Below are positions 2,795 through 60,440 of a stretch of 64,000 bases of DNA, in pieces. A program made the position numbers and the translations under genes. Numbering within the stretch: position 1 is the stretch's first letter; each line of letters begins with the position of its first letter. Origin of the DNA: Escherichia phage AV123; sequence record OR352953.1, one strand, 5' to 3'. The notes under the pieces are model-generated. The model saw nothing but the letters and a program-made list of their open reading frames with translations, was not told the DNA's origin and searched no databases.

Positions 2795-4681
2795 ATGTAT
2801 CCTATTCCTTTATTTATGTCAACAACATCAGCTTCAGTAGTAACAGCTACATCTATAACTACTTCCTCTATTGGTATTGCAATAGTTGGTGGTAAAAAAC
2901 AACTGACATACACAGTTACACCGGAAGATGGTGCATTATTTGATATAGCTTTTTCATCTTCAGATGATACCAAAATGGTTATAGATAATAATGGTATGAT
3001 GGAGTTTGTTGCCGAAGGTGGTTTTGATGCAATAATGACAGCTAAAAATAATTTAGGTGCTGTCTTAACTGATCAATCTGGTGGTTATGCTTCAGAATTA
3101 AGTGTGTACACTGAAAGTCTATCGGCTATGGATGTAGGCACTACTCAACAGTTGGTTGCTACAATCCGTCCAGAAGGTGCTAAAGACCTTCCAGACATGG
3201 TAATTACATACACCACAACAGATCCAGAAGTAGCTACTGTAAGCTCTACAGGATTAATAACTGCTCTTAAAGATGGCAATTGCCGTATAGGTTGTACTGC
3301 AACGTATCAAGGAACAGTTGTGGCCTCTGATAGTTCTTATTTAGGTGTTAATGCTATTCCTGTTATTTCTAATGTAACAGCCGTGGCAAACAGTTATGGA
3401 GACGTTCGTGTTGCTTGGGATGTAACTGATCCGCTAGATGGTGATACTTATACTGTAGAAGTATTAGATTTAAGTGATAATAGTGTCCAGTGGACTACAA
3501 CAACCACAAATACTTACGCCTACTTTGATATCTCTGACTCTATTCCTCTTTATGGGTTTGCTCCAACATACCTTAAAATTAGCGTTAAGAGCACCAAAGC
3601 AGCAGCCGTTATCTTTAATAGCTCAATAGCTACAGATGATTCATTCATTAAAGAAGTTATTGTCTTTGCTGGACAAGATAACGTAAATGCACACTTTACA
3701 GAACTATCTGGCGCAAATAAAGCAGCAATGAGTAGCACAACAGCCCGTAATGCATATGCTACGCAACGTGGTTTAGCAAATGCTGAAGTTCTTCCGTTAA
3801 ATGCAGCTTCTGGATCATCAGCAGCAGATAAATATGCAGATGATAAAGCCGGAACAGGAACGCCAGACAACTACTGGTATGATCTGGATAACACAGCAGA
3901 TGGGCCATGCTTAACTAACTTTATCACTAAAGTCACACCTTATGCAAGTAAGGTTAAAGCAATTATTTGGGGACAAGGTGAAAATGATGCTGTATCAGCA
4001 TCTTCGACTGTTGCAGGTAGGTACAGTAACACTACACGTTACCATGATGCTACGATAGCTATCTTTGATAAGATGCGTACAATAGTTCCTGCTTCTCAAG
4101 CAAAAATTGTTTGGCAGATCCTAGGACGTTCTTATTTATATGGTGTAGAAGTTAATGGTGTGGATTGGCAGAAGTACAGAAATGTACAAAGAACCATCTC
4201 TACAGCACGTGATGATGTTATCATTGGTTCTTGGGTAGATGGTGCTGAACGTTACAGTGGTTATGTTTATGAAGAAGGTATTGATGGTCGTATCCATTAT
4301 ATTTCTTCTGTATACCAAACAGCAGCTACAAAACTTGCTAAATCGGCAGCAGACGGTACAGACTTAACATCAGCGTCACCTGTTTGGGTTGATATGTCTG
4401 TTCCAACAGGAGGAGCCGCTGTAAGACAAGCTAACCAAGATGCAATTATCTCTTGGGAACCAGCAGGATATACTAAACATTACTTCCGAAATGTAAACGT
4501 CCTCACAGCAGCAATTCTTACAGAACAAACCCTGGATACTAACACTTACACATTTACTTATGCAGATCAGGTTGAACAATATGGATTTGCAGCAGGTACA
4601 ACAGCGTTTGATGTTGCACACTATGATGCTGATAATGACGTGTTATCACCTCTTGTCAGATTTACAGTCAATGTTACATAA
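2795..4681 (+). CDS. Large tail fibre/spike protein with possible SGNH/SASA-type esterase motif
   Basis: AAGGAG RBS; T/S/V-rich Ig-like N-terminal region; IIWGQGENDA resembles the W-x-QGE-xD motif of sialate O-acetylesterase-like hydrolases. Confidence 0.55.
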   Translation: MYPIPLFMSTTSASVVTATSITTSSIGIAIVGGKKQLTYTVTPEDGALFDIAFSSSDDTKMVIDNNGMMEFVAEGGFDAIMTAKNNLGAVLTDQSGGYASELSVYTESLSAMDVGTTQQLVATIRPEGAKDLPDMVITYTTTDPEVATVSSTGLITALKDGNCRIGCTATYQGTVVASDSSYLGVNAIPVISNVTAVANSYGDVRVAWDVTDPLDGDTYTVEVLDLSDNSVQWTTTTTNTYAYFDISDSIPLYGFAPTYLKISVKSTKAAAVIFNSSIATDDSFIKEVIVFAGQDNVNAHFTELSGANKAAMSSTTARNAYATQRGLANAEVLPLNAASGSSAADKYADDKAGTGTPDNYWYDLDNTADGPCLTNFITKVTPYASKVKAIIWGQGENDAVSASSTVAGRYSNTTRYHDATIAIFDKMRTIVPASQAKIVWQILGRSYLYGVEVNGVDWQKYRNVQRTISTARDDVIIGSWVDGAERYSGYVYEEGIDGRIHYISSVYQTAATKLAKSAADGTDLTSASPVWVDMSVPTGGAAVRQANQDAIISWEPAGYTKHYFRNVNVLTAAILTEQTLDTNTYTFTYADQVEQYGFAAGTTAFDVAHYDADNDVLSPLVRFTVNVT

Positions 4682-24915: not shown

Positions 24916-24933
24916 TCTTTTCTCCTCTTTAAT

Positions 24934-24952
24934 GCGGAGGACAATCCTCCGC
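24934..24952 (-). terminator. Hairpin
   Basis: GCGGAGGACAATCCTCCGC. Confidence 0.45.
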
Positions 24953-24992
24953 TCTATGTCTTATACTATAAACTGTTTTTAAAGAAAGTCAA

Positions 24993-47041: not shown

Positions 47042-47246
47042 GGTATCGCCCTTTCTTTGATGTGCGCCCTGGTTGGCGCGGTAGAAAGATAATAGCCCTT
47101 TCCTTTATAGATAGCAAGCAAAAAAGAAATGAAAAAAAGATTAAAAAAGGGGTTGACGGTTGGAACGATTAACGCTATTTTGTTAGCCGTTCCAGTGTGG
47201 ATCACTGTAGCAATTGTTGTTTCAATCATTCTATAAGGCGCACACT

Positions 47247-47529
47247 ATGAGCAAGGTAATTAATCATAAAGAGTTAAACCCTACCCTTTCAATGAGTGAA
47301 TGTACCGATGGTTTTTGGCTGTATGATGATACGCGCGGTATGAATTTAGCCATGCGTGAAAAAAACAGAAGAGGCGGCGTATATTAAAGCCCTGGGCTAC
47401 TATCAGGAGCGATTAAAGGAAGTAGAAAACAATTATAATAACCTAAAAGCAAAAGTAGATCACTTTATCAGCCAGGTAGCTCATGACGACGATGATCACT
47501 ACTGCGAACAATGTGGATCATATAGTTAA
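47247..47529 (+). pseudogene. ORF interrupted at an A7 run (possible +1 frameshift or sequencing error)
   Basis: Frame from ATG 47247 stops at 47385-47387; downstream frame is open to 47527-47529 and reads as a coiled-coil continuation; A7 run at 47359-47365. Confidence 0.35.
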
Positions 47530-47547
47530 AATTATCTAAAAATATTC

Positions 47548-47607
47548 TTGACAACGTTTTTTAATCTGATAAGATGTAACAAATAAGGCGGGAAGTGGTT
47601 TCCCACC
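47548..47607 (+). promoter_or_regulatory. Sigma70-like promoter plus leader hairpin (PeSL-like cassette)
   Basis: TTGACA 47548-47553, -10 TAAGAT, hairpin GGCGGGAAGTGGTTTCCCACC 47587-47607, then RBS and ATG 47633. Confidence 0.55.
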
Positions 47608-47632
47608 AGGCAATCAAAGAAAGGGTAACACA

Positions 47633-47995
47633 ATGAGCAAGCAAATCAATACTATCATGTTAAACCTGGTATCTTTCCGCGATGACGTGAAAAACCTTCC
47701 GCGTGATGCAGTGGATGCACGGATCGAAAGCTATCGCACACAGATCGCAACATTACCGTTAAAACGTGATCAACATGCCGCTAATATGATGCTTGATGCT
47801 ATGATTAAAAAGATGATTCAGTGTGATATTACCCTGGCTTATGAATATGCTGGCGATCTATTTGTAACATACAATAAACCCGTTCCAGGTATGAGCACAA
47901 CCGAAGAATTGCATGCCTTAAATCTGAGACAAGATGCATGGGATAACATGCGCCGTGTTATGGTATGGGTAGAAAGCGGCAAAATTTACGCGTAA
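47633..47995 (+). CDS. Hypothetical protein
   Basis: AAAGAAAGGG RBS after cassette. Confidence 0.55.
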   Translation: MSKQINTIMLNLVSFRDDVKNLPRDAVDARIESYRTQIATLPLKRDQHAANMMLDAMIKKMIQCDITLAYEYAGDLFVTYNKPVPGMSTTEELHALNLRQDAWDNMRRVMVWVESGKIYA

Positions 47996-47998
47996 AGA

Positions 47999-48051
47999 TT
48001 GACATTGCACTAAAACCTGATAAGCTATCTTAAAGCGGGAACTATTCCCGC
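47999..48051 (+). promoter_or_regulatory. Promoter plus leader hairpin
   Basis: TTGACA 47999-48004; hairpin GCGGGAACTATTCCCGC 48035-48051. Confidence 0.5.
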
Positions 48052-48070
48052 TTACATAGGATAAAACTTT

Positions 48071-48217
48071 ATGAAACAATATGTAATGAGTATTCACACC
48101 AAAAACGGCGCTACTGTTACGACTCCGGCACGGTTTGCACTTGTAAACCGTTGCAAAAGACTAAAACGAGAGCTAAAAAACAACCGTGCAACGGGCTTTA
48201 AACGCTGGGGAGGATAA
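48071..48217 (+). CDS. Small basic ORF (48 aa), not in track
   Basis: ATG 48071 after hairpin; stop 48215-48217. Confidence 0.3.
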   Translation: MKQYVMSIHTKNGATVTTPARFALVNRCKRLKRELKNNRATGFKRWGG

Positions 48218-48219
48218 TC

Positions 48220-48480
48220 TTGTTTTTTCTAAAAGTTTTTGATAATGTGATCGCTTTTGAACATGCTACAACGTTCGACCTGGCGAGATACGCTATCAGG
48301 TTTAAAGATAATGTTTATCCCCGTGCTGGCGGCGGTTACACTATTTTTAATCATCGCAACGCGCAACTAACTGATATAACTAATCCAGATCCTGGAGTGT
48401 ATCGGATAGGCTGGCTACCGTCAAAAGATGCGGCAAGCATGTTTAAGGTATGTAAACTACTAACAGAAGAGGCGAACTAA
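48220..48480 (+). CDS. Hypothetical protein
   Basis: TTG start 8 nt after GGGAGG. Confidence 0.45.
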   Translation: MFFLKVFDNVIAFEHATTFDLARYAIRFKDNVYPRAGGGYTIFNHRNAQLTDITNPDPGVYRIGWLPSKDAASMFKVCKLLTEEAN

Positions 48481-48481
48481 C

Positions 48482-49036
48482 ATGGGGCGTGAATATGTGA
48501 TCCAGTCCTGGGTAAAGCATGATGCTAATGATCCGCGCATAATACCAGATGACATGATCGATCACATGGTAGGGTATAGCGGGGAGCAGATAGGAAATCG
48601 AGCGGCAAAGAGCAACGGCAACACCAGGACGCGATCCGTTCGCCCTGGATGGCTGGCAAATGGTAACGCTGACATTGCAAGCGCCGCAGATCCAAGCGAT
48701 GACGCTAAAAATAATCCCTTATACAGTATTGATCCGGCTTTTAAGGTGTTGGAAGAGTATCCCGCTAAATTAGCCGCACTAGATAAAGCATACGAAGAAA
48801 AACGGGTGGCATGGACTGTATACAACACCGCTAAAATGGTGCTAGATGCAAAATTGATTAAAGCCCAGGAGAAGATCAATAAACTTGTTACCATAGCGCG
48901 AGAGGAAGACCAGGACGACCAGGAGGAAGAGGAAGAAATCATGCCTAACCTGGAAGAGGAAGAGATCCAGCCATACACGCCGACAGAAGAGGAAAAAATA
49001 CAAGCCTTAAAAAATTATAAAAATTGTATTGTGTAA
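48482..49036 (+). CDS. Hypothetical protein with acidic E-rich C-terminal region
   Basis: Coupled to upstream (TAACATG). Confidence 0.5.
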   Translation: MGREYVIQSWVKHDANDPRIIPDDMIDHMVGYSGEQIGNRAAKSNGNTRTRSVRPGWLANGNADIASAADPSDDAKNNPLYSIDPAFKVLEEYPAKLAALDKAYEEKRVAWTVYNTAKMVLDAKLIKAQEKINKLVTIAREEDQDDQEEEEEIMPNLEEEEIQPYTPTEEEKIQALKNYKNCIV

Positions 49037-49039
49037 GGC

Positions 49040-49095
49040 TTGACATATGCAAACAAGCCCCGTAATATGTACCACATAAAGCGGGGCAACGCCCC
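49040..49095 (+). promoter_or_regulatory. Promoter plus leader hairpin
   Basis: TTGACA 49040-49045, 17-bp spacer, TAATAT 49063-49068, hairpin GCGGGGCAACGCCCC 49081-49095. Confidence 0.55.
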
Positions 49096-49117
49096 ATAAG
49101 GTGAAATAAAAAATCAC

Positions 49118-49145
49118 TTGACACCTGAAATCAGTAAGCTATAAT
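49118..49145 (+). promoter_or_regulatory. Consensus sigma70-like promoter
   Basis: TTGACA 49118-49123, 16-bp spacer, TATAAT 49140-49145. Confidence 0.6.
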
Positions 49146-49182
49146 GCTTATATAGATTGAAACATTACTAAGGAATAAAAGC

Positions 49183-49362
49183 ATGGCTATTATTGCAAAG
49201 ACTGAGATCGTAGGTTTAGATTCTATCATCCTGGCATATGAGGAAGCTATAGAAATGTATGTGGTTTCCTATGGTGATTATATCCGTGAATATAAATCTA
49301 TTGATCTAGCTTTTGAATGCTATATTCGCCAGGTCAATAAAGCATATGATGATTATCGTTAA
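49183..49362 (+). CDS. Small ORF (59 aa), not in track
   Basis: AAGGAA RBS; sits behind two tandem promoters. Confidence 0.4.
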   Translation: MAIIAKTEIVGLDSIILAYEEAIEMYVVSYGDYIREYKSIDLAFECYIRQVNKAYDDYR

Positions 49363-49381
49363 AAGTTTTAGTCTTGTGCTA

Positions 49382-49411
49382 TTGACAACGAACGATAGTA
49401 CAAGCATAATA
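49382..49411 (+). promoter_or_regulatory. Sigma70-like promoter
   Basis: TTGACA 49382-49387 and CATAAT about 17 bp downstream. Confidence 0.45.
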
Positions 49412-49457
49412 ACTTTTATCGGGAATACTCCTAACTAATCAAAAGAGATTAAAGACT

Positions 49458-49823
49458 ATGGCTAAAAATATCAATGTTTCTGCTTATGCTACCCTGGCTA
49501 ACACTGCTAAAATTGAACTATCCAGCATTGAAGCGGTACATATTAGCGCCCGTCGCTGGTTTCAAAAGTCTTATGGTAATACTTATTTCTCTTTGATGGT
49601 TGACGTTGAGATCGGCGGTAAACTGATTGAAGTCGTTAACGTTCCGTTTCAATATGGTTATGGTGATCATTTTGATACCGTTGCCCTAGAAGAGTTTAGC
49701 AAGGTTATCAACCTGGAAGGTAAAGAGTTTTCAAATTATGCATACCTTTCCCGTTTTTGCCGTGATAATGGGATCGCTGTATACAGTCATGCAAGCGATG
49801 TTAAACGTAAAAAAGATTTATAA
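49458..49823 (+). CDS. Hypothetical protein
   Basis: AAGAGA RBS. Confidence 0.5.
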   Translation: MAKNINVSAYATLANTAKIELSSIEAVHISARRWFQKSYGNTYFSLMVDVEIGGKLIEVVNVPFQYGYGDHFDTVALEEFSKVINLEGKEFSNYAYLSRFCRDNGIAVYSHASDVKRKKDL

Positions 49824-49829
49824 AAAGCA

Positions 49830-49887
49830 TTGACAGCACGAATAAAAAGCATATAATACTTATATCGAGAGCGGGAATAGTTCCCGC
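49830..49887 (+). promoter_or_regulatory. Promoter plus leader hairpin
   Basis: TTGACA 49830-49835, TATAAT 49852-49857, hairpin GCGGGAATAGTTCCCGC 49871-49887. Confidence 0.6.
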
Positions 49888-49911
49888 CTCACTGAAAAAG
49901 AGATTAACATC

Positions 49912-50151
49912 ATGGCTAAATCTAAAATGTTCTTAGGTCACAAAAACAAAACTCATTGGAATGTAAGCCTTTGGATCAACAACGATGAAGGTTTTTATAA
50001 TCTTGCGCGTGAATTTATCGCAGCTAACACCAATAAGAATGACGCAGCGCGGGATATGATGTTATTTCTTGAAAGTATGGATCAAGATAAAACGCCAGAC
50101 GGATTCAAGTTCAGTAAAACCGCGATCCGTGCCGCTATGGTTGGAATGTAA
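49912..50151 (+). CDS. Hypothetical protein
   Basis: AAAGAG leader. Confidence 0.5.
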   Translation: MAKSKMFLGHKNKTHWNVSLWINNDEGFYNLAREFIAANTNKNDAARDMMLFLESMDQDKTPDGFKFSKTAIRAAMVGM

Positions 50152-50246
50152 AGGAGGTATAAAAATGAAACATCGTTCGACCTATCTCACAAAACGTTTT
50201 AGCTTAGATCATAAGTTAGGCTATTACGGAAGAAATAGAAAATAAT

Positions 50247-50306
50247 TTGACACTGTTTAAAATTCTGGTATAGTTTATCACATAGGGCGGGAAATGGTTT
50301 CCCGCC
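50247..50306 (+). promoter_or_regulatory. Promoter plus leader hairpin
   Basis: TTGACA 50247-50252, TATAGT, hairpin GGCGGGAAATGGTTTCCCGCC 50286-50306 (9-bp stem, 3-nt loop). Confidence 0.6.
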
Positions 50307-50328
50307 AAATCAAAGAAAGGTTATCATT

Positions 50329-50556
50329 ATGGCTATCGTTATTGTTCGCGTATCCGGTACGGTTGGAAGCTCCCAGGTAGTAGCAGTTATCACAGAGAAG
50401 AAAGGGGATGATCTTCACTCCTCCTTGAATAGCTGGGCGGTCGCTAACTTTGGGCAATGGTCGAGCGTTGAGTACATCGAATCCTACCAGGTGCCAACGA
50501 TTAGCCTAACCGATCTAAATGTTGATCGCTTGTTGTGCCTGGATCAATTAAACTAA
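50329..50556 (+). CDS. Hypothetical protein
   Basis: AAAGAAAGG leader. Confidence 0.5.
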   Translation: MAIVIVRVSGTVGSSQVVAVITEKKGDDLHSSLNSWAVANFGQWSSVEYIESYQVPTISLTDLNVDRLLCLDQLN

Positions 50557-50564
50557 AAATAATA

Positions 50565-50620
50565 TTGACAAGATAACTAAAATCAGTAAAATGTAATGCA
50601 TAGGGCGGCAATAGTGCCGC
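50565..50620 (+). promoter_or_regulatory. Promoter plus leader hairpin
   Basis: TTGACA 50565-50570, TAAAAT, hairpin GCGGCAATAGTGCCGC. Confidence 0.5.
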
Positions 50621-50643
50621 TCCTAGTGAGAGAGATTATCAAG

Positions 50644-50859
50644 ATGGCTAATATCCGCACACTGTTAAAAAATGCAAGTCAAGTTTTATTTTCAGATGAC
50701 GAGTATTTCAACAAAGACATTACAGGCGTGAAAAATTTAAAAGACGTGAAGGATGTTATCGGTATCCGTGGATCTTTACGTAAAGGTGACATATACGGTA
50801 ACAAGGTGCAATATAAACTGTCAAAAGATTATGATTTTACTTTGACATTTATTTCATAA
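50644..50859 (+). CDS. Hypothetical protein
   Basis: Start at MANIRT after leader; track start is an upstream extension through the hairpin. Confidence 0.5.
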   Translation: MANIRTLLKNASQVLFSDDEYFNKDITGVKNLKDVKDVIGIRGSLRKGDIYGNKVQYKLSKDYDFTLTFIS

Positions 50860-50865
50860 AACCGC

Positions 50866-50926
50866 TTGCAATACTGCAAAAATAAAGTAAACTGTATTCA
50901 TCAAGGCGGTGGAATAGCCCACCGCC
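50866..50926 (+). promoter_or_regulatory. Promoter plus leader hairpin
   Basis: TTGCAA, TAAACT, hairpin GGCGGTGG-AATAGC-CCACCGCC 50905-50926. Confidence 0.45.
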
Positions 50927-50949
50927 TAACAAAGAGAAGAGGAAACATC

Positions 50950-51120
50950 ATGATCACTTTCGCTACCCGTGAAGCCGCTCGCAACGTTGCACGTAAAGTT
51001 AACGCCGCCAACCTGGGCGCTACGCTTAAAGCCCCGGTAAAAGATGAATCAGGTAAATGGATCTTCCCTGGTCTGCGTCACGCTGATAAGCTGGGAACGT
51101 TAACGCTAAAAAATAAATAA
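50950..51120 (+). CDS. Small hypothetical protein (56 aa)
   Basis: AGAGAAGAGGAAA leader then ATG 50950. Confidence 0.45.
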   Translation: MITFATREAARNVARKVNAANLGATLKAPVKDESGKWIFPGLRHADKLGTLTLKNK

Positions 51121-51127
51121 AATCCGC

Positions 51128-51186
51128 TTGACAGTAGCATCATTTATAAGTAAAGTAACAACAACGGCGGGAAATGGTTTCCCGCC
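51128..51186 (+). promoter_or_regulatory. Promoter plus leader hairpin
   Basis: TTGACA 51128-51133, TAAAGT, hairpin GGCGGGAAATGGTTTCCCGCC 51166-51186. Confidence 0.6.
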
Positions 51187-51206
51187 ATCAATAAAGAGAT
51201 AAGATC

Positions 51207-51566
51207 ATGAAATCAGTAAAAGCAATTAAAACTTACATTGTGTCGGCTATTTCTTTTGATGGTACTACAACCGAAAAAGAAAAGATCACCGAACTGATGC
51301 GCCGTTTTAACTCTGAATACTGGTATCCCGATAATCAAAAACGTTACAATTATAACGTGATCAAGGCGATAGCCTCATGGTTACAAGGTTTACCGTCAGA
51401 CATTAACATCGCCTTTGATTATAACGAGATTGATCATTTATTAATTGAATGGAAGTACATAAAAGAAACAAGCAAAGAAACAACCGTTACCCGTGAGCGG
51501 GAAAATTATTGGTTATATATTGCAAGCATGATCGTAATCCTGGCAAAACAGCATAACGTGGCGTAA
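51207..51566 (+). CDS. Hypothetical protein
   Basis: AAAGAGA leader. Confidence 0.5.
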   Translation: MKSVKAIKTYIVSAISFDGTTTEKEKITELMRRFNSEYWYPDNQKRYNYNVIKAIASWLQGLPSDINIAFDYNEIDHLLIEWKYIKETSKETTVTRERENYWLYIASMIVILAKQHNVA

Positions 51567-51581
51567 TTAAGAGGAAGAAAC

Positions 51582-51719
51582 ATGAACGCATCACAGCAGA
51601 TCGAAAAATTCAACCGCAGCAAGGCGCGTAAAGATTGGAACGAAGAGATCACCAAAAAAGGCGACAAGCGGAACAAAACAAAGAGAGATCGCAGCACAAA
51701 AAGATACTGGAACGAATAA
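51582..51719 (+). CDS. Small highly basic ORF (45 aa), not in track
   Basis: GAGGAAGAAA RBS; K/R-rich product; terminator follows. Confidence 0.35.
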   Translation: MNASQQIEKFNRSKARKDWNEEITKKGDKRNKTKRDRSTKRYWNE

Positions 51720-51723
51720 CAAA

Positions 51724-51747
51724 AAAGGGCGCAATAAGCGCCCTTTT
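51724..51747 (+). terminator. Hairpin terminator
   Basis: AAGGGCGCAATAAGCGCCCTTTT. Confidence 0.65.
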
Positions 51748-51838
51748 AGCTTATATAGAGGCTTGTTACCCATAGGCAATGGTAACGCCAGGATAAGCCT
51801 ATAAATCAACGTTAGACGGCTTTACAGGAGCTTTAAAA

Positions 51839-52021
51839 ATGAAATTAGACGAAATAAGCAAGGCACTAGCCCAGGGGCAAAGGTTATGCGCCCGATATCG
51901 TGATCAATATGGCTTCATAACTAGCGGCGTGATCCTGGGGATTGAAGGCAATAAGATTTTTATTGACACGTTGAAAAACGTTGTATATAGTGACAATATA
52001 ATCTCAATAAAACATATATGA
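51839..52021 (+). CDS. Hypothetical protein
   Basis: AGGAG RBS. Confidence 0.45.
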   Translation: MKLDEISKALAQGQRLCARYRDQYGFITSGVILGIEGNKIFIDTLKNVVYSDNIISIKHI

Positions 52022-52029
52022 GGCAAGAA

Positions 52030-52431
52030 ATGAAAAAATTATTGATCGCTGGTTTAATCTCTTTTGGCATGGTTGGAACATCTAGCGCGGCGATATCCTC
52101 CACAGTAGCAGAATTAAGCGCCGTTGATGCAATGGAAAACGTCATGCTTATTAATAATGCGATCCCCGATGAAATCATGGAGGATTCACACATGATCGCT
52201 TATGGTGCTGTTACACAACTAACGGCAAAAATAGATAAATCTATTGTTAACGGCTTAAATGAAGATGTGCCATGTGAAATTATTACCAGTGTGCTGACTA
52301 CTCAAAATTTTACGCCGTGGTTAAAAAGTATTCAAAAAGTACACAGTACAGCCGCAGATCGTAGCAATGAAAAACTAGTGTCAGCACTTGCAACGTATAC
52401 CCTAGCAAAATGCACCGAGATAAAAGATTGA
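52030..52431 (+). CDS. Secreted hypothetical protein
   Basis: Start at MKKLLIAG with GAGG RBS; signal peptide ending SSAAIS. Confidence 0.5.
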   Translation: MKKLLIAGLISFGMVGTSSAAISSTVAELSAVDAMENVMLINNAIPDEIMEDSHMIAYGAVTQLTAKIDKSIVNGLNEDVPCEIITSVLTTQNFTPWLKSIQKVHSTAADRSNEKLVSALATYTLAKCTEIKD

Positions 52432-52456
52432 CAACATAGAAAGCACGTTATAAGAT
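52428..52456 (+). promoter_or_regulatory. Sigma70-like promoter
   Basis: TTGACA 52428-52433, 17-bp spacer, TAAGAT 52451-52456. Confidence 0.5.
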
Positions 52457-52478
52457 ACACACAACAAAGGAGAACTAC

Positions 52479-52781
52479 ATGAACGGCATAGCTAAAACGT
52501 TTTTTCTTTTTTCTGGTGTAAATGATCCATCAATAAAAGTCGATAGTGTAAAAGAAAACAATACTATCACCGCTAAATTGTTTCAAGATGAAACAAATAA
52601 CGTGCTAATCATTAATCTTAAAGAAATAACGAAAGGTTATTATACTATTGCTTACCATGCAATCTATCGTGCTGGTACTAGTGAGGAAGTGCAAACAAGC
52701 AACAACGAAAGCGCGGCACTACCTGGTGATCTGGTGCTGGGCGTTATCAGTTTAATTGTCAATGATTTTTTTAAGGAGTAA
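52479..52781 (+). CDS. Hypothetical protein
   Basis: AAAGGAGAA RBS. Confidence 0.5.
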   Translation: MNGIAKTFFLFSGVNDPSIKVDSVKENNTITAKLFQDETNNVLIINLKEITKGYYTIAYHAIYRAGTSEEVQTSNNESAALPGDLVLGVISLIVNDFFKE

Positions 52782-52785
52782 AACC

Positions 52786-52881
52786 ATGCCCTATTTACAT
52801 TTATTTTTCGGTATCTTATTGACAGGATCTTTTTTCTTCTGTATGCTTGTTTCTATTGTAAACCACGTTTTAAGACATTAA
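52786..52881 (+). CDS. Hydrophobic micro-ORF (31 aa), tentative
   Basis: AAGGAG 7 nt upstream of ATG. Confidence 0.25.
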   Translation: MPYLHLFFGILLTGSFFFCMLVSIVNHVLRH

Positions 52882-52890
52882 GGAAACAGC

Positions 52891-53010
52891 ATGAAAATTA
52901 TTCCCGTACAATATAGCGTAATAAATCCAGCATACGAGGAAGGAAGGAAAACAAGCATGGCTTTATGTTGTATTGCTACTATAGCCATGTTGTTATACAT
53001 TGTGTTTTAA
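52891..53010 (+). CDS. Hydrophobic micro-ORF (39 aa), tentative
   Basis: AGGAAA RBS; C-terminal TM helix. Confidence 0.25.
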   Translation: MKIIPVQYSVINPAYEEGRKTSMALCCIATIAMLLYIVF

Positions 53011-53110
53011 TAGGTTTTATAGTTGTACGCTTTAAAGGCTTGACAATTTTTTGTTATGCTTTAAACTATATCTTGAAAACGGCAAAGGCCGCAAACAAAA
53101 GGGTAAAATT

Positions 53111-53434
53111 ATGAAATCTGTGATCGGTGTTTATTTGGATAACTCTGATTTTTTCTATCATCGCGCGCGTTTACTTGATGCTATTGAAATGATAGAATCA
53201 GGCTTTAAAGAGTATCGCCTTGCACATGATGACCTGGAAGCATTACAGGGCAATAGTGTTTTTACATTGCAAGCGAAAGCACTATGCAAAAGCCGGATCG
53301 AGATTGCAAGTAAAAAGATACAACGCGGCATGTCCTGGTTGCGCACCGCAGAAATCAACATGGGGCAATGGTACGGCGAAAACTTAGAAAATAAACGCAC
53401 TTTTGTAAATGTAGAAAATCTTAAAGATTATTGA
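53111..53434 (+). CDS. Hypothetical protein
   Basis: Start at MKSVIG; TTGACA at 53040-53045 upstream. Confidence 0.5.
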   Translation: MKSVIGVYLDNSDFFYHRARLLDAIEMIESGFKEYRLAHDDLEALQGNSVFTLQAKALCKSRIEIASKKIQRGMSWLRTAEINMGQWYGENLENKRTFVNVENLKDY

Positions 53435-53496
53435 TTGACAGCACACCTAACAGATAGTATATTGTATCTCATAGAGCGGGGAAATGGTTTCCCCGC
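53435..53496 (+). promoter_or_regulatory. Promoter plus leader hairpin
   Basis: TTGACA 53435-53440, TATATT, hairpin GCGGGGAAATGGTTTCCCCGC 53476-53496. Confidence 0.6.
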
Positions 53497-53516
53497 CTTA
53501 ACAGAAGAGATAAGCT

Positions 53517-53801
53517 ATGAAGATCACAAAAGCACTTTCCAACTATGCAGCACGTCGCGGATTATGTTTAACCGTTGAAAATTTAGGGAAAGAAGATTTT
53601 TTGTGCTTTTGGGAGCTTGAGAATGATAATGAGTGGATCTTCTCTTATTCTATCTGCGAAGATCAAAACGGTTGTTTATTAACCTGGCGCGGTAATATCT
53701 ATCTACCGGAAGAAATCAAAGAAGAATTACCAGGCACGATCATGACTGAGAAACAGCTTAAGGAAGTGATCAATTTTGTAGGGCAAAACATTAAAAAATA
53801 A
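53517..53801 (+). CDS. Hypothetical protein
   Basis: AGAAGAGA leader. Confidence 0.5.
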   Translation: MKITKALSNYAARRGLCLTVENLGKEDFLCFWELENDNEWIFSYSICEDQNGCLLTWRGNIYLPEEIKEELPGTIMTEKQLKEVINFVGQNIKK

Positions 53802-53802
53802 T

Positions 53803-53862
53803 TTGACACTAGGCAAACAACGTAGTAAAGTTTATCACATAGGGCGGGAAATGGTTTCCCGC
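53803..53862 (+). promoter_or_regulatory. Promoter plus leader hairpin
   Basis: TTGACA 53803-53808; hairpin GCGGGAAATGGTTTCCCGC 53844-53862. Confidence 0.55.
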
Positions 53863-53885
53863 TCACAACAGAAGAGAAACAAATC

Positions 53886-54056
53886 ATGATCCCAACTATG
53901 TTTTATGTATCGCGCAAAGGTCACAATATTTTTTGGTCTGAAGATTTAAATGAAGCCATGACGTTTGCCCGTGATCGTGTTGCTATCGGTGGCGTTAACA
54001 TTACTGTAACCGATGAAAACGGCATTGAATACTATAACGGCGACGATGAAGAGTAA
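53886..54056 (+). CDS. Small ORF (56 aa), not in track
   Basis: AGAAGAGAAA leader. Confidence 0.4.
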   Translation: MIPTMFYVSRKGHNIFWSEDLNEAMTFARDRVAIGGVNITVTDENGIEYYNGDDEE

Positions 54057-54063
54057 TTAATAA

Positions 54064-54084
54064 GGCGGGGGAGTATTCCCCGCC
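54064..54084 (+). promoter_or_regulatory. Intercistronic GC-rich hairpin without own -35/-10
   Basis: GGCGGGGGAGTATTCCCCGCC; no T-run after it. Confidence 0.4.
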
Positions 54085-54103
54085 GTCAATAAAGAGGTAA
54101 ATC

Positions 54104-54373
54104 ATGAAAATATCTTTGGACGTTGCAATCAAGGCCATTGAATCCGGTTACACCCTGGTAAAAGATGATAAGGCTAAAACCGTGCACCACGTTAACAAGG
54201 AAACAGGCGAAAGCATGATCACATATAAAACCGCCTATTTTCTCCAATCAGTAGCAGATCCGCGCGTACAACGCCAGGTTACGGCGGCTATTGCTAAAAA
54301 ATTATGTGCTTTACAGGGTACAAGTTTTAACGAGATCGCCCCGTGTTTTGACTGGTCGAGCTTGAAAAAATAG
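54104..54373 (+). CDS. Hypothetical protein
   Basis: AAAGAGG leader. Confidence 0.5.
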   Translation: MKISLDVAIKAIESGYTLVKDDKAKTVHHVNKETGESMITYKTAYFLQSVADPRVQRQVTAAIAKKLCALQGTSFNEIAPCFDWSSLKK

Positions 54374-54374
54374 T

Positions 54375-54430
54375 TTGACAACAATTATAAATCGGGTAGA
54401 ATGTATTTCGTAGGGCGGCAATAGTGCCGC
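54375..54430 (+). promoter_or_regulatory. Promoter plus leader hairpin
   Basis: TTGACA 54375-54380, TAGAAT, hairpin GCGGCAATAGTGCCGC 54415-54430. Confidence 0.55.
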
Positions 54431-54453
54431 TCACAACTAAAAGAGAAATCAGC

Positions 54454-54648
54454 ATGGCGCTTAAAAAACTAACAAGCAATACTCGTTGGGATGAAATCGA
54501 CGGAGAAGTTTACATTTTCGCCCGTAAACCAGGTGATCAAAAATGGTCTAAGGCTTTTACTTGCCACCCTGCAACAATAGACCTGATAAAAAGGGAAGGT
54601 TTACGTGAAGCGGTAGCAAGAAGTTTACTGATCCCTTATAAAAAATAG
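54454..54648 (+). CDS. Hypothetical protein
   Basis: Start at MALKKL after leader. Confidence 0.5.
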   Translation: MALKKLTSNTRWDEIDGEVYIFARKPGDQKWSKAFTCHPATIDLIKREGLREAVARSLLIPYKK

Positions 54649-54713
54649 TTTGACAATACGCGGTTATCTGGTAAAGTGTACGACATAGGGCGGGGCAATA
54701 AGGCAACGCCCAT
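54649..54713 (+). promoter_or_regulatory. Promoter plus degenerate leader hairpin
   Basis: TTGACA 54649-54654; GGGCG...CGCCC stem. Confidence 0.4.
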
Positions 54714-54729
54714 TAATGAGGGTAGAATC

Positions 54730-54834
54730 ATGTTAGAGAAAATTTTCACGGTTGTAATAGTTGGCCTGGCGTTATCGGTTGGATTGGTTGCAACTATGGC
54801 TAACATGATCCTATCTTCCCACGGTATTGGATAA
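54730..54834 (+). CDS. Hydrophobic micro-ORF (34 aa), tentative
   Basis: GAGGG leader; single TM helix. Confidence 0.3.
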   Translation: MLEKIFTVVIVGLALSVGLVATMANMILSSHGIG

Positions 54835-54844
54835 GGTGAATCAA

Positions 54845-55060
54845 ATGATCACGAATAAGACAGGTAAAACAGAATTTTTACGCGGCTTGCAAATAGGTAA
54901 ACCTGAGATCTGGCATTGCACTAAATCCGCGCATAATGAAATGAAAGATTTTACCGCTACTTTACAACGTGTTAAAATATCTATCACGCAGAAAAAAGCC
55001 TTGTTAGTAGTAGAAAACGAGATACCGCAAACCATTATTATTGTCGAGCGTACAGCATGA
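54845..55060 (+). CDS. Hypothetical protein
   Basis: AAGGTGA RBS before ATG 54845. Confidence 0.45.
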   Translation: MITNKTGKTEFLRGLQIGKPEIWHCTKSAHNEMKDFTATLQRVKISITQKKALLVVENEIPQTIIIVERTA

Positions 55061-55443
55061 AAACTGAAATCATTATTGAAATCATCAACGGTTATAAAGA
55101 AGCCTTTATTTTTGCTGAATCAGCCAGGGATCATGAAGGCTATTTTATTGATAACTTAGACGATTATGATTTTTCAGATCAAGCCCATCAGCGGATCATT
55201 CATGACGTAGCGGCTTATTGTGATGCCAATGATGCTGCTATCTCTGAGGCAATGAGCGACGGCGCTACAGCAAACCAGATCGGGAATGATTTACATTTTA
55301 CCCGTAACGGTCACGGCGTAGGCTTTTGGGATCGCCCTGAAATATACACTACTAACACCGCCAACCGCCTAACAAATGCAGCTAAATTAATGCCATCGGT
55401 GCATGCTTACATTGGTGAAGATAATTTGATTTATATTGAATAA
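55057..55443 (+). CDS. Hypothetical acidic protein
   Basis: ATGA coupling. Confidence 0.5.
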   Translation: MKTEIIIEIINGYKEAFIFAESARDHEGYFIDNLDDYDFSDQAHQRIIHDVAAYCDANDAAISEAMSDGATANQIGNDLHFTRNGHGVGFWDRPEIYTTNTANRLTNAAKLMPSVHAYIGEDNLIYIE

Positions 55444-55449
55444 AAAGTA

Positions 55450-55508
55450 TTGACACCGATCCCCAATATGTTATTATTTACCACGTAGGCGGGAAATGGT
55501 TTCCCGCC
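55450..55508 (+). promoter_or_regulatory. Promoter plus leader hairpin
   Basis: TTGACA 55450-55455; hairpin GGCGGGAAATGGTTTCCCGCC 55488-55508. Confidence 0.6.
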
Positions 55509-55531
55509 AGGTAATCAAAAAGGTAAATACT

Positions 55532-55921
55532 ATGCGCAACCTGGTTTCTGTTTCTAACGTTGAAAAATTCCAATCTTTACAGGGTATCGTTAACAACGTA
55601 GCGCCTTTTTTAGTCAATGGCTTGATTGCAAAGATGAAAAATAAACATCATGCGGCATGGTCTGCTTACTGCTTTGATAATGATGAAAAAGCGGCTGAAA
55701 TGATGTTAAATATGCTGTTAGACAGTGTAGAATCATCTTTACCGGAAAACATCGCAGAAGAGATCACCTATCGTTATAATATGGCGATCACTTACCAGGA
55801 GGTTGCGCAATTTAATATGATGGATGATGACGAACAACAGGATCAGGAAATGTTCTGGGAGTATGCAGATCGTCAATCGGCTTTTGATGAAAAGTTAGCG
55901 ATGTATTATAACGAATATTAA
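55532..55921 (+). CDS. Hypothetical acidic protein
   Basis: AAAAAGG leader then ATG 55532. Confidence 0.5.
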   Translation: MRNLVSVSNVEKFQSLQGIVNNVAPFLVNGLIAKMKNKHHAAWSAYCFDNDEKAAEMMLNMLLDSVESSLPENIAEEITYRYNMAITYQEVAQFNMMDDDEQQDQEMFWEYADRQSAFDEKLAMYYNEY

Positions 55922-55934
55922 TACACGGTAAAAG

Positions 55935-55962
55935 AAAGGGGCGCACTAAGCGCCCTTTTTTG
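55935..55962 (+). terminator. Hairpin terminator
   Basis: AAAGGGGCGCACTAAGCGCCCTTTTTTG. Confidence 0.7.
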
Positions 55963-56305
55963 TATTCTTTTTCACAATGGAAGCGACACGTAAAGAATAG
56001 GCGTAAAGGTGGCGTAAAACCATCTAAAACCGACTGTAACCGCTTAAACAAGGTAGGAATGATTAATCACCTTACCAGGATGAAAAAGCTGTTATAAAGC
56101 TATCTAGAGCGTTTAAAGCACATAGGAAATAATTTGCTTTTTATCTTGCCTTTTATCCTGCTTTTGATTATTATTATGGAACGGGCGGCACCTGGGGACA
56201 GGGGAAGATAATCACCGGAAGATCCCGCTATATATTAATAGCTAATACCTATCAAACAACAAAACATCAAAGGAATAAACTATCAAATCTTTACAATCCT
56301 ACCTA

Positions 56306-56365
56306 TTGACACCGGATCGCCCTTATACTAAGATGTATCACGTAAGGCGGGAAGTGGTTTCCCGC
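56306..56365 (+). promoter_or_regulatory. Promoter plus leader hairpin
   Basis: TTGACA 56306-56311, TAAGAT, hairpin GGCGGGAAGTGGTTTCCCGC. Confidence 0.55.
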
Positions 56366-56384
56366 TCAATATAGGAATCATATC

Positions 56385-56615
56385 ATGATCGAACAAATTA
56401 AACGCGCTGAAGCTATTAACGGCAATGTGATCTATTCTGTCAGCAATAACGAAAAAGGCGTACCCTATGCAGCGGTGATAGTACAGCCTGACGGTGATTA
56501 TTGGTTTACTGTATACGGATCTTATTCTTTTGGGCGTCCAGTACATGATAAAATTTTGAAAGTAGCTAATCCCACTGGGAAGAATATCACAGTAGAAAAA
56601 TTTTTTGAAAAATAA
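56385..56615 (+). CDS. Hypothetical protein
   Basis: AGGAAT leader. Confidence 0.5.
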   Translation: MIEQIKRAEAINGNVIYSVSNNEKGVPYAAVIVQPDGDYWFTVYGSYSFGRPVHDKILKVANPTGKNITVEKFFEK

Positions 56616-56690
56616 CTTGCTTTATAGCCTCTGTTAACTTATAGTTATCGTGTAGGGCAAACAATTTTAAACGGTAAACGAGGAATCACC

Positions 56691-57074
56691 ATGAGCAATA
56701 TCATCAACCTGGCGGCTACTGTAAACGGTAAAGACTTTAACGGCGCTGTAGACCGTGATCCTATGTGGTGCTTGTCAGTGTTTAAAGGTGACTTGGTTGA
56801 AGTTAGAACAACCGAAGGGTATAGCGATGATTATAAATGCGAGATCCATTTACACAACTGGTACACGGGTAAAACTTATGCACTGAATCATGCGTTTATC
56901 GGCAAGGTTGAATATAGAGAAATGATCGACGAAGAAACGGGGCAAGATTTTAGCGAGCATGTTTATATTCGTTCAGAAACATTAGCCGAACGTTTGATCG
57001 AGAAAATGAAAGCAAAAAATAAAATTAATTTATCTCATTGGATTGATATAACAAACGATCCAGCTTATCAGTAA
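56691..57074 (+). CDS. Hypothetical protein
   Basis: ACGAGGAA RBS. Confidence 0.5.
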   Translation: MSNIINLAATVNGKDFNGAVDRDPMWCLSVFKGDLVEVRTTEGYSDDYKCEIHLHNWYTGKTYALNHAFIGKVEYREMIDEETGQDFSEHVYIRSETLAERLIEKMKAKNKINLSHWIDITNDPAYQ

Positions 57075-57088
57075 ATAACATTTCAAAC

Positions 57089-57116
57089 AAGGGCGCTTAT
57101 TGCGCCCTTTCTTTTT
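57089..57116 (+). terminator. Hairpin terminator closing the island
   Basis: AAGGGCGCTTATTGCGCCCTTTCTTTTT. Confidence 0.7.
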
Positions 57117-57321
57117 ACCTAAATAAAGATGATAGCTTTTACCTATCAAAAACGTTCACCGAAAAAAGTGAATAGATCGCGGTATCGAGCTAATCAAGGA
57201 GCAGATGAACAACCATACCATGAAGATCATAAGGCGCTTACAACGTGTTTTAGACCGCTTATTTTTAATTTCTTCATGTAATTACCTGGCAAAAACAGCC
57301 TTTTTCTTGTCTTTCCTCTTA

Positions 57322-57397
57322 AATGATAATCATTCTTATTTATAGCTGATTATTTATGCAATAAATTGCATAATGCAATAATGAGAATCATTCTTAA
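57322..57397. promoter_or_regulatory. Fur-box-like sites flanking an 18-bp palindrome
   Basis: AATGATAATCATT at 57322-57334 (exact Fur-box core), TAATGAGAATCATTCTTA at 57378-57395, palindrome TATGCAATAAATTGCATA between them. Confidence 0.5.
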
Positions 57398-57689
57398 CTT
57401 AAGACCATCTAACCTATAAAATAATAAGTTATCTAACTAAATTAAAACTAATTATCTCACCTTTATTTATAACTTACTGTTACTATCTCATTGATAACAT
57501 TGTATTAAACAATAATAACTAATATAAATCATTACTAAGCTAAATATAATCTATCTAACCCTTAAAACTACAATTATAATCTATCGAATTGTTGCACAAA
57601 GTAACTATTAAATTGTTAGTAACATTACTAAATAATTCACATCCTATCTATTTATGATCTAATCTTTACCTTCCTATCTATTACTTAGA

Positions 57690-57737
57690 TAATCATTTCA
57701 TACAGTAACCATTTCATGTAGTAATCATTCCATACAA
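57690..57737. repeat. Three tandem 16-bp iteron-like repeats
   Basis: TAATCATTTCATACAG / TAACCATTTCATGTAG / TAATCATTCCATACAA. Confidence 0.55.
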
Positions 57738-58241
57738 TAACTATAACAAGAAATATAATTCGCAAGCGTATCATTAGCAGCCTATGCCGGACACATAGGC
57801 GGCTAATAATAACGCAACTACACACCCCACATAATAACCATCACCGATAGTTATTATTTGTGCTTATGTAGCTTGCAACAATTGCAAGCGCAACAATATA
57901 CTAGGGTATATTGTATCCCTTACATTGTTGCGGTGCGTTATTATTAGCTAATGTTTAGAACATTGGCTATAATATAAGCTATCCAATAATAAACATGGTG
58001 AATAATGACACTGATGATCATAATGCGCCACCCTCCAGGGGGCGCTATGTGAACACAAAGAAATCTTTCTTGTCAAGAAAAATATCACCATTATTGCGCA
58101 AAATTATTTATATCTGAATAGATGATTTTTCATACTATTGCCCCCTTGATTATTACCATTTGTTGAGCCTACTTTCTTAAAAGCGCAATAAAATAGAATT
58201 ATATTGATTTTTAGTCGGTTTTATAGTACAGAAAGTATGCA

Positions 58242-58455
58242 AATGATAATCATTATCAGCTATCTTCCACGGGTGGCACTATTTCACACCAGATCATTTC
58301 ATTTGGCAAGGTGTATATAGATGTTTAGACTTGCCAAGCCATTGATTTCCTTAGAATTTATCTGTTTTGTTGTGAGTAGTACCTTTCTTGCTTAGAAAAT
58401 AATCAAAAGTCTTATAAGTCATTGAATGATAATACAAATGATAATTATTCTCATT
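58242..58455. promoter_or_regulatory. Fur-box-like sites upstream of the 58.8-kb gene block
   Basis: AATGATAATCATTATC at 58242-58257 (16/16 to positions 4-19 of GATAATGATAATCATTATC); AATGATAATTATTCTCATT at 58437-58455. Confidence 0.5.
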
Positions 58456-58814
58456 GATATTTGAGGGGGACGGTCGGCAGAAATCGGGGGGTGCTGAAAA
58501 TCGCGTTAAGCACCTCTCGCAAGCGAGCAGTATTTTGCGGCAAGTTATTGATATTATTGACTTTACGCTTATGAAAAGGGGGTGTGTCGAAATAAATCGG
58601 GTATACCGGAAAATTTTTGTGGCATAGATATTTATTTGTCTATATTATGTACAAAGGGGTGTGTTAAAAATAATAGGTATATATAGAATAATTGATAGGG
58701 AATATCTATACTAATTCCTCCATTAATGATATTCCTATGCTACTGCTCTTGTAATAGATGAAAAGACGCTGTATGATGTGTGGCATGAAACGTAAACTTA
58801 TAAAGGAGTCTGAT

Positions 58815-59987: not shown

Positions 59988-60440
59988 ATGTTTGAAATTG
60001 GTAAAGTGTATCGTTTTAAAAACCCATCTTATATCCGTAAGTTTGCTAACGTGTCTGAGTGCAATAGCAGGATTGCTTCTTTTTTAGGTGATTCCTATTT
60101 TCGTGTATTAGATGTGGATGATTGGTATGGTGTCACTGCTTTGCAATCCTTAGCAGGAGAACAAGAAATTATCGCTCAAAATGAAGGAGACTTTCTTCAG
60201 TGTTACACGTTGCTTGCAAAAAGTGAGTTTGAGTATTTTGTAGAAGTTTTAGAGGAAGCACCAAAAAGTAAACACGAAGAGAAATACCTGCTTGTAGTGG
60301 ATGGAGTTCCGATCATGGAAACCATCTCCCGTGAGGAAGTTGAAAAAGAGGCGAAACGTTACAAGCTGAATCGTACACAGAGTGTAGTTGAAGTCTATTC
60401 TCTTGTTGGTGTTGCAGATATTAGTGTGAACATTGTATAA
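59988..60440 (+). CDS. Hypothetical protein
   Basis: AAGGAG RBS. Confidence 0.5.
   Translation: MFEIGKVYRFKNPSYIRKFANVSECNSRIASFLGDSYFRVLDVDDWYGVTALQSLAGEQEIIAQNEGDFLQCYTLLAKSEFEYFVEVLEEAPKSKHEEKYLLVVDGVPIMETISREEVEKEAKRYKLNRTQSVVEVYSLVGVADISVNIV

Follow-up and report, generated by a model that had tools for sequence, protein, structure and literature searches.

The closest described relatives of the element treated here are the promoter early stem-loop (PeSL) units of T4-type phages. Each joins an AT-rich tract and a sigma-70 promoter to a stem-loop, a ribosome site and an ATG; the units are dense in hyperplastic regions and mediate gene shuffling (PMC2839356; T4-type PeSLs are also treated by Comeau et al. 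2014, PMC4122927). Swapping between adjacent PeSLs also gives rise to encapsidated mini-circles. Five classes of PeSL stem-loop are distinguished (Arbiol et al. 2010, PMC2839356), which lie upstream of the -35 element, overlap the -35 or the -10, fall between them, or stand downstream of -10, immediately ahead of the start; none is inside the transcript. The stem-loop has been proposed, and partly shown, to act as a terminator or attenuator, and one of them lowered lacZ expression to an extent similar to that of rrnB T1 (PMC2839356). In Escherichia coli, 5' secondary structure stabilises mRNA through RppH and RNase E (PMC3997798), and the ompA and papA leaders carry 5'-terminal stabiliser stem-loops (Emory, Bouvet and Belasco 1992; summarised in PMC3997798). 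Here we describe an array of promoter and leader-hairpin cassettes in a stretch of 64,000 nucleotides (nt) from Escherichia phage AV123 (OR352953.1), hereafter the window. The cassettes would be early promoters for the host polymerase whose transcripts carry a protective and insulating 5' hairpin, with each unit doubling as a recombination junction, an interpretation to which we assign a probability of roughly 0.55.

Twenty near-consensus sigma-70 promoters were found on the plus strand of 47548-56645. The -35 element is a perfect TTGACA in 18 of them (the exceptions are TTGCAA at 50866 and TTGCTT at 56617), the spacers measure 16-17 nt, and the -10 element has the form TAnnnT save for CATAAT at 49405. 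Behind 14 of the 20 promoters, a hairpin of -8 to -18 kcal/mol begins 6-13 nt past the -10; the promoter at 53040 is followed by a weak hairpin of 4 base pairs (bp) only. The unit is laid out as an A-rich upstream tract, the promoter, the hairpin, an A-rich spacer, an AAAGAG-type ribosome site and the ATG, with 79-85 nt from -35 to ATG in most hairpin cassettes. The upstream stop codon adjoins the -35 or falls inside it (TGA 52429-52431 within TTGACA). The composite pattern TTGACA-N16/17-TAnnnT-N6/14-GCGG has 13 matches, all on the plus strand in the array interval, against 0.02 expected, and none of 100 shuffles reached this number. With a background chance of 0.0064 that a comparable hairpin starts within a 20-nt span, its presence at 12 or more of 20 promoters has a probability of ~5e-22.

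The array of such cassettes that the initial annotation had described is real and its layout reads as given there, while the count of at least 15 holds if either the promoterless unit (54064-54084) or the weak one (53040) is included. The end had been placed at 56365; the array goes further, to the cassette at 56617 and the gene 56691-57074. The statement that nearly every small gene follows a cassette was too strong: by our own start-codon calls, the interval holds 29 open reading frames (ORFs; median 76 amino acids, 77% coding), about half of which sit directly behind a hairpin cassette. The region is indeed a variable one of small genes without known function, as proposed. PHROGs assigned no function to any of the 10 array proteins scanned, and a Pfam scan of 20 array proteins returned DUF7249 and Gp30.8 only, with no family of known function.

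The region 47500-56400 is 97-99% identical to the Escherichia phages Eryne, ESCO9 and Paula, and 287 phage records match in all. Paula and phi92 are classified as Justusliebigvirus, Stephanstirmvirinae, which places the window in Justusliebigvirus (phi92-like). The family-A DNA polymerase noted at the outset is encoded by ORF 8034-10613 on the minus strand (PF00476, E = 3e-13). A motif search of related phages, an approach suggested in the same annotation, recovered cassettes in Justusliebigvirus, Vequintavirus, Seunavirus and Certrevirus. In Eryne, the closest relative, a genome-wide scan revealed GCGG-type cassettes in this array and at one other site only, that of the isolated minus-strand copy.

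All 15 leaders that were folded show the hairpin in their minimum-free-energy structure, and their ribosome site is mostly unpaired. A covariance model built from seven window copies of equal length recovered 105 copies when run on the window and on 12 loci from phages of the four genera. Across 62 distinct sequences, 94.2% of the alignment cells pair, both partners have changed in 5 of 9 pairs and compensatory cells number 23. These figures lean towards structure, because the model guided the alignment and the copies, being paralogous, lack independence. None of 500 shuffles attained these values, and slid controls pair at 32-76%. Arms that differ in sequence and retain full complementarity are free of this caveat: GGCGGGAAA/TTTCCCGCC, GCGGCA/TGCCGC, GCGGAGGA/TCCTCCGC and GGCGGGG/CCCCGCC. 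Arms of 5-9 bp and loops of 3-6 nt occur with a near-invariant outer GCGG...CCGC core, and GGCGGGAAATGGTTTCCCGCC constitutes the hairpin in 11 of the 62 distinct aligned sequences.

Wobble cells are distributed in one direction only, with 30 G·T (5'-arm G opposite 3'-arm T) against 0 T·G, and purines make up 84% of the 5' arm and 14% of the 3' arm. Because these wobbles would be mismatches on the other strand or in duplex DNA, they argue for selection on the coding-strand transcript. Taken at the level of sequence, the data support a hairpin that is a sense-RNA structure, selected on the sense strand; a symmetric site in double-stranded DNA does not fit. An earlier alignment of 14 cassettes with plain MAFFT and RNAalifold misaligned the stems of unequal length and yielded 4 pairs only, and was replaced by the covariance model. 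Rfam gave no match at gathering score in the window, and a permissive scan returned chance-level hits only (E-values at least 0.076).

The promoters of 54 distinct cassettes from the window and eight relatives were compared. The -35 hexamer carries 1.98 bits per position, a value largely forced by the search pattern, whereas the promoter spacer (0.43 bits per position) and the 12 nt past the -10 up to the stem (GTATCACATAGG; 1.39 bits per position) are not forced by it. Conserved hexamers with a free spacer are the signature expected of a promoter. The conserved 12-mer puts a pyrimidine-purine step (C-A) 7-8 nt past the -10, which is the usual start distance, and transcription probably starts at this purine, within the conserved GTATCAC-ATAGG. 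The stem-loop would then span +2 to +6 through about +25, inside the transcript of its own cassette, and its position at the extreme 5' end of the mRNA is predicted purely from promoter geometry. With this start, the predicted folds leave 0-4 nt unpaired 5' of the stem. The distance from the -10 to GCGG is 12 nt in 11 of 15 window cassettes, and that from the hairpin to the ATG varies between 17 and 25 nt.

The units of the array, the terminator-like hairpins among them and one isolated cassette elsewhere in the window are the following.

47548-47632, plus strand: cassette 1, with the -35 at 47548, the -10 at 47570-47575 and hairpin 47587-47607 (one C·A mismatch); gene 47633-47995.
47999-48070, plus strand: cassette 2, hairpin 48033-48053; genes 48071-48217, 48220-48480 and 48482-49036.
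49040-49117, plus strand: cassette 3, an orphan, with promoter and 5-bp hairpin 49083-49095; no ORF before the next promoter.
49118-49182, plus strand: perfect consensus promoter TTGACA-16-TATAAT, hairpin-less; gene 49183-49362.
49382-49457, plus strand: promoter TTGACA-17-CATAAT with a degenerate hairpin remnant; gene 49458-49823.
49830-49911, plus strand: cassette, hairpin 49871-49887; gene 49912-50151 (DUF7249), then small ORF 50166-50245; insertion junction in phages outra and ZYD.
50247-50328, plus strand: cassette, hairpin 50286-50306 (GGCGGGAAATGGTTTCCCGCC); gene 50329-50556.
50565-50643, plus strand: cassette whose hairpin core, 50605-50620, lengthens to 50603-50622 through G·U and G-C pairs; gene 50644-50859.
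50866-50949, plus strand: cassette with a TTGCAA -35, hairpin 50904-50927; gene 50950-51120; in outra and ESCO8, an additional 159-nt gene has its junction here.
51128-51206, plus strand: cassette, hairpin 51166-51186; genes 51207-51566 and 51582-51719.
51723-51747, no strand assigned: hairpin between A and T runs, like a bidirectional terminator, closing the first cassette run.
51963-52029, plus strand: hairpin-less promoter inside ORF 51839-52021; gene 52030-52431.
52428-52478, plus strand: hairpin-less promoter, with the upstream TGA within its -35; gene 52479-52781.
53040-53110, plus strand: promoter with the weak 4-bp hairpin 53080-53091; gene 53111-53434.
53435-53516, plus strand: cassette, hairpin 53476-53496; gene 53517-53801.
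53803-53885, plus strand: cassette, hairpin 53843-53863; gene 53886-54056; left edge of a module shared with Vequintavirus NHEP1.
54057-54103, plus strand: promoterless hairpin 54064-54084 and ribosome site; gene 54104-54373; also present in NHEP1 (9267-9287 of the NHEP1 stretch compared).
54375-54453, plus strand: cassette, hairpin core 54415-54430; gene 54454-54648, which outra and PaulScherrer lack; right edge of the NHEP1 module.
54650-54729, plus strand: cassette with imperfect hairpin 54688-54711; genes 54730-54834, 54845-55060 and 55057-55443.
55450-55531, plus strand: cassette, hairpin 55488-55508; gene 55532-55921.
55933-55961, plus strand: hairpin followed by TTTTTT, like an intrinsic terminator.
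56306-56384, plus strand: cassette, hairpin 56346-56366; gene 56385-56615 (absent from EC_OE_11).
56617-56690, plus strand: promoter TTGCTT-17-TATAGT, hairpin-less, with the leader motif GTGTAGGGC kept; gene 56691-57074, T4 Gp30.8-like (PF06019).
57089-57109, plus strand: terminator-like hairpin with a T-run, at the end of the array.
24916-24992, minus strand: isolated cassette of like design, TTGACT-16-TATAGT, hairpin 24952-24934, ribosome site and ATG.

The orphan cassette 49040-49117 is probably the scar of a deleted gene; as it stands directly upstream of the promoter at 49118, the gene 49183-49362 has tandem promoters.

Pairwise alignments to nine related phages gave, by our own tally, 15 distinct rearrangements. 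Of their 30 junction ends, 23 fall inside cassettes, which occupy 21% of the region (P ~1e-10), although this location is weak evidence, because whole-gene insertions and deletions end intergenically and the intergenic DNA is nearly all cassette. Chimeric cassettes mark nearly every indel in the relatives, and the decisive argument for recombination is carried by three chimeric junction sequences that were resolved base by base. In phage outra, which lacks gene 54454-54648, a chimeric cassette joins the left part of cassette 54375 to the right part of cassette 54650, with the crossover within the shared AAAAAATAGTTTGACAA. Phage EC_OE_11 lacks gene 56385-56615, and the crossover lies within TATCRYGTAGGGC. 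Cassette 1 of the window is itself chimeric: it combines the promoter of Eryne cassette 77376 with the hairpin side of Eryne cassette 77732, and the gene between them is lost. Other junctions show 10-85 nt of overlapping homology.

A module of 598 bp (53833-54430), containing two genes and the promoterless hairpin, is 95.7% identical to Vequintavirus NHEP1 (9036-9633 of the stretch compared), against at most 77% identity or no alignment between NHEP1 and the rest of the region. The identity extends from TATCACATAGG in the leader of cassette 53803 to the loop of hairpin 54415-54430. Phage phi92 is without both module genes, and its junctions lie in cassettes 53803 and 54375, the same two that bound the NHEP1 module. 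These sequence comparisons show that genes are inserted, deleted and replaced at the cassettes, and that phages of different subfamilies have taken part in the exchange.

In the scheme that we favour, the cassettes would be portable immediate-early expression units. Host sigma-70 RNA polymerase would initiate at the near-consensus promoters with their A-rich upstream tract, at the purine named above, and the first ~25 nt of each mRNA would fold into the GC-rich hairpin with its 0-4 unpaired nucleotides 5' of the stem. By analogy with mRNA decay in E. coli, such a base-paired 5' end would hinder RppH and 5'-end-dependent RNase E. The hindered decay would stabilise the short early mRNAs, and the A-rich ribosome site would stay open whatever gene follows. 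On transcripts that read through from the unit before, the hairpin would lie at or near the 3' side, where, speculatively, it could slow exonucleases or attenuate read-through. With ~20 copies of a ~80-bp unit in one orientation, the array offers recombination a substrate, and the small genes that lie between units are deleted, inserted and replaced, as the comparisons above show.

Several observations speak against this scheme, among them the limits already given for the covariation values and for the location of the junction ends. Five promoters (49118, 49382, 51963, 52428 and 56617) are without a hairpin, and one hairpin (54064-54084) is without a promoter while keeping the usual spacing to its ribosome site. 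Up to 4 unpaired nucleotides at the predicted A start may still admit RppH. The literature searched on rV5/phi92-like phages yielded no transcriptome and no data on transcription starts, half-lives or termination. Finally, a spacer hairpin, as found in a second promoter architecture of this phage group, is outside its own transcript, so that a role shared with the leader hairpins would need upstream transcripts or DNA.

This second architecture has a GC hairpin, often GGGGCC-GAAA-GGCCCC, lying between -35 and -10, which is the classic layout of T4 PeSLs. Certrevirus PcCB7V, a Pectobacterium phage, contains TTGACCG-GGGGCCGAAAAGGCCCC-ATAAT and, on that strand, five more promoters of similar form (positions 2241, 2703, 5798, 6481, 7237 and 9756 of the stretch compared), and Seunavirus FENT2, an Enterobacter phage, contains two (2596 and 11234 of the stretch compared). 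In the window, the minus-strand promoter 46772-46744 has a GC hairpin in its spacer. A spacer hairpin and a leader hairpin occur together at 3440-3495 of FENT2.

As the two architectures coexist in one phage group, an action of the hairpins on upstream transcripts stays plausible. The hairpins could act mainly there, attenuating or terminating read-through or blocking 3' exonucleases and in this way insulating the genes, with the leader position being incidental; we consider this possible but rather unlikely. It would be consistent with the lacZ effect of the PeSL stem-loop cited above, with the spacer hairpins of the relatives, which are present in upstream transcripts only, and with the promoterless hairpin 54064-54084, which directly follows a stop codon. 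Public annotation software also labels the hairpins as terminators. However, no cassette hairpin passed a T-run criterion of 5 T in 8 on the plus strand: the first 8 nt past the stem contain 0-3 T and the sequence is A-rich, so the cassette hairpins are not canonical intrinsic terminators. Separate hairpins with T-runs (51723-51747, 55933-55961 and 57089-57109) close the cassette runs instead, and the spacing of the cassette hairpins is tied to the -10, at 12 nt in most cases, and not to the upstream stop codon. In the Paula record (LR865361.1), most cassette hairpins are labelled 'terminator' on the strand opposite the genes; we regard these labels as a software artefact, there being no gene on that strand to terminate. 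The ASO2A record likewise shows 'terminator' under a cassette. Ribosome sites are the only such annotation in the phi92 record, and the rV5 paper lists promoters and terminators separately.

The exchange between cassettes also bears on whether they are recombination-prone or selfish repeats, homogenised by gene conversion, whose hairpin has no regulatory function. The many near-identical copies, with GGCGGGAAATGGTTTCCCGCC so frequent among the distinct sequences, and the chimeric cassettes, which represent ongoing exchange, agree with this idea, as does a loop flip at 48033-48053, which suggests that the hairpin is active as DNA. We nevertheless find the idea improbable, as divergent stems keep their pairing by compensatory changes in four genera, the strict orientation and purine-rich 5' arm indicate strand-specific selection, and a like layout occurs in unrelated high-GC mycobacteriophages. 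The flipped hairpin (AAGCGGGAACTATTCCCGCTT) matches the reverse complement of its Eryne counterpart exactly (the loop reads CTA here, TAG in Eryne and TTG in phi92), a change of the kind that template switching or cruciform processing at a palindrome would make.

That the inverted repeat is instead a DNA operator, at which a dimeric phage repressor bound at about +4 to +25 shuts the early promoters at the middle/late switch, is very improbable: the palindrome does occupy the classic roadblock position just downstream of the start, with a near-invariant outer core and a strongly conserved 12-nt motif adjoining it, but arms and loops vary in length, inner stem positions change on both sides with complementarity kept, the one-way G·T wobbles are meaningless for recognition of double-stranded DNA and pair in sense RNA, and no candidate repressor was identified.

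Three further candidates were set aside without direct test. RNase III sites were rejected on account of the short stems, and antitermination of the lambda nut/boxB or HK022 put type on account of the single short hairpin, the few terminators and the lack of a boxA. We know of no virion RNA polymerase in this phage group, and N4-type hairpin promoters were set aside for this reason.

The array adjoins a genome terminus, since the terminal repeat of phi92 maps to the window just behind it. In phi92, the homologous genes are gp225-gp248, the last of which ends ~1.1 kb short of the right direct terminal repeat, and the array likewise ends ~1.1 kb upstream of the counterpart of that repeat.

58166-58508, no strand assigned: counterpart of the 343-bp direct terminal repeat of phi92, mapped at 96.5% identity.

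This counterpart is contained in an AT-rich stretch of 1.6 kb that follows the array (57110-58750) and has no convincing genes; short direct repeats, for example CCTATCTATT, are found around 57640-57680. Upstream of the array, a homologue of Phi92_gp225 (47247-47529) is apparently in two frames near an A7 run (~47362-47368), owing to a frameshift or a sequencing error. The window has gp225 without gp226, and Eryne the reverse. About 180 bp present in relatives are missing from the window in the same neighbourhood (47130-47160 versus Eryne 77100-77300), with a repeated TTGACG at the junction; in Eryne, this piece looks non-coding and GC-rich, with G-runs. Beyond the terminal repeat, 59988-60440 is probably the homologue of an Eryne ORF named 'goF mRNA metabolism modulator' (coordinates mapped by offset only); its protein has no Pfam match, and the goF-like name is unconfirmed.

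A scan of viral contigs with the cassette pattern, which forces the 5' arm and leaves the complementary arm and the repetition free, gave mostly single hits that are probably due to chance. Arrays were found in three contigs only, all from phages of ~70% GC: Mycobacterium phage Thonko, with 7 units in 3.5 kb at the right end (61.8-69.5 kb examined), Mycobacterium phage Imvubu, with 6 units at one locus, and IMGVR_UViG_651703110_000001. Their units read TTGACA-17-TAnnnT, ~11 nt, GGCGGG-loop-CCCGCC, ribosome site and ATG. A small inverted repeat (CGAC...GTCG) is seen in their promoter spacers. A limited literature search returned no description of arrays of the Thonko and Imvubu type, and the palindromes of cluster O mycobacteriophages (PMC4351075) were rejected as a different kind of repeat. 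As a tentative proposal, to which we give somewhat less than even odds, the cassette may be a distinct and widespread mobile early-gene unit, in which a consensus host promoter stands at fixed spacing to a covarying 5'-terminal RNA hairpin that acts as protector or insulator of the mRNA end and not as terminator, and by which phages would plug in and swap unrelated small genes across subfamilies. If so, the layout in Thonko and Imvubu would mark a general solution reached by convergence, not a peculiarity of a single lineage.

Considered more narrowly, the array looks like a system akin to PeSLs that occurs in a new lineage and whose stem-loop has shifted into the leader of the mRNA; its components and the idea of shuffling are already known. 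It would extend modular shuffling of the PeSL type past T4-like phages to the rV5/phi92 group, whose members are widely isolated for use in therapy, and provides junctions at base level, including one transfer between subfamilies. As a simple marker in the sequence, the cassette points out accessory genes that are likely immediate-early and are candidates for roles in host takeover or anti-defence, and its recognition corrects the recurring mis-annotation of the hairpins as terminators, mostly on the non-coding strand. Some 20 natural variants of a compact part composed of promoter, 5' hairpin and ribosome site offer material on 5' structure, mRNA life and expression. This is not a new principle; the finding is solid and useful, not revolutionary. 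The literature searched contained no description of such cassettes in rV5/phi92-like phages, although an earlier mention in the phi92 or PVP-SE1 genome papers is possible.

The terminal redundancy of Bacillus phage SPO1 carries a host-takeover module with many small early genes and multiple strong host-type promoters. The array resembles it as a cluster of small early genes next to a genome terminus, while host and phage lineage differ, and we know of no repeated leader hairpin or cassette-mediated shuffling described in SPO1. The morons of lambdoid phages (promoter, gene and terminator; PMC2839356) are likewise self-contained expression units for single accessory genes. They have unrelated flanks, however, and are thought to arrive by illegitimate recombination, whereas in the window the conserved unit is itself the crossover site and no terminator accompanies each gene. 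With the ompA and papA stabilisers, the cassettes share a stable hairpin a few nucleotides from the predicted 5' end, followed by an unstructured ribosome site, and a structure that is kept more than its sequence. By contrast, the hairpin of the window is repeated ~15 times in a mobile unit, and its 5' end is one predicted from sequence.

The resemblance to PeSLs that was proposed in the initial annotation stands for composition, hyperplastic setting and recombination, and fails for the placement and the predicted role of the stem-loop. Both kinds of unit join a sigma-70 early promoter with its AT-rich upstream tract to a GC-rich stem-loop, and both have a stop codon at the 5' end of the motif and a ribosome site and start codon at its 3' end. 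Both cluster densely in a variable region whose small genes have no known function, and both are associated with insertions, deletions and replacements that arise from recombination between copies. Unlike the T4-type hosts of PeSLs, AV123 belongs to the Stephanstirmvirinae lineage and encodes a family-A polymerase. The stem of the window units starts 6-13 nt past the -10 and ends ~30 nt past it, spanning the predicted start and the leader; it has no T-run, and it is predicted to act at the 5' end of the mRNA of its own unit and not in termination. Judged by its predicted coordinates, this leader placement is a sixth stem-loop position beside the five PeSL classes.

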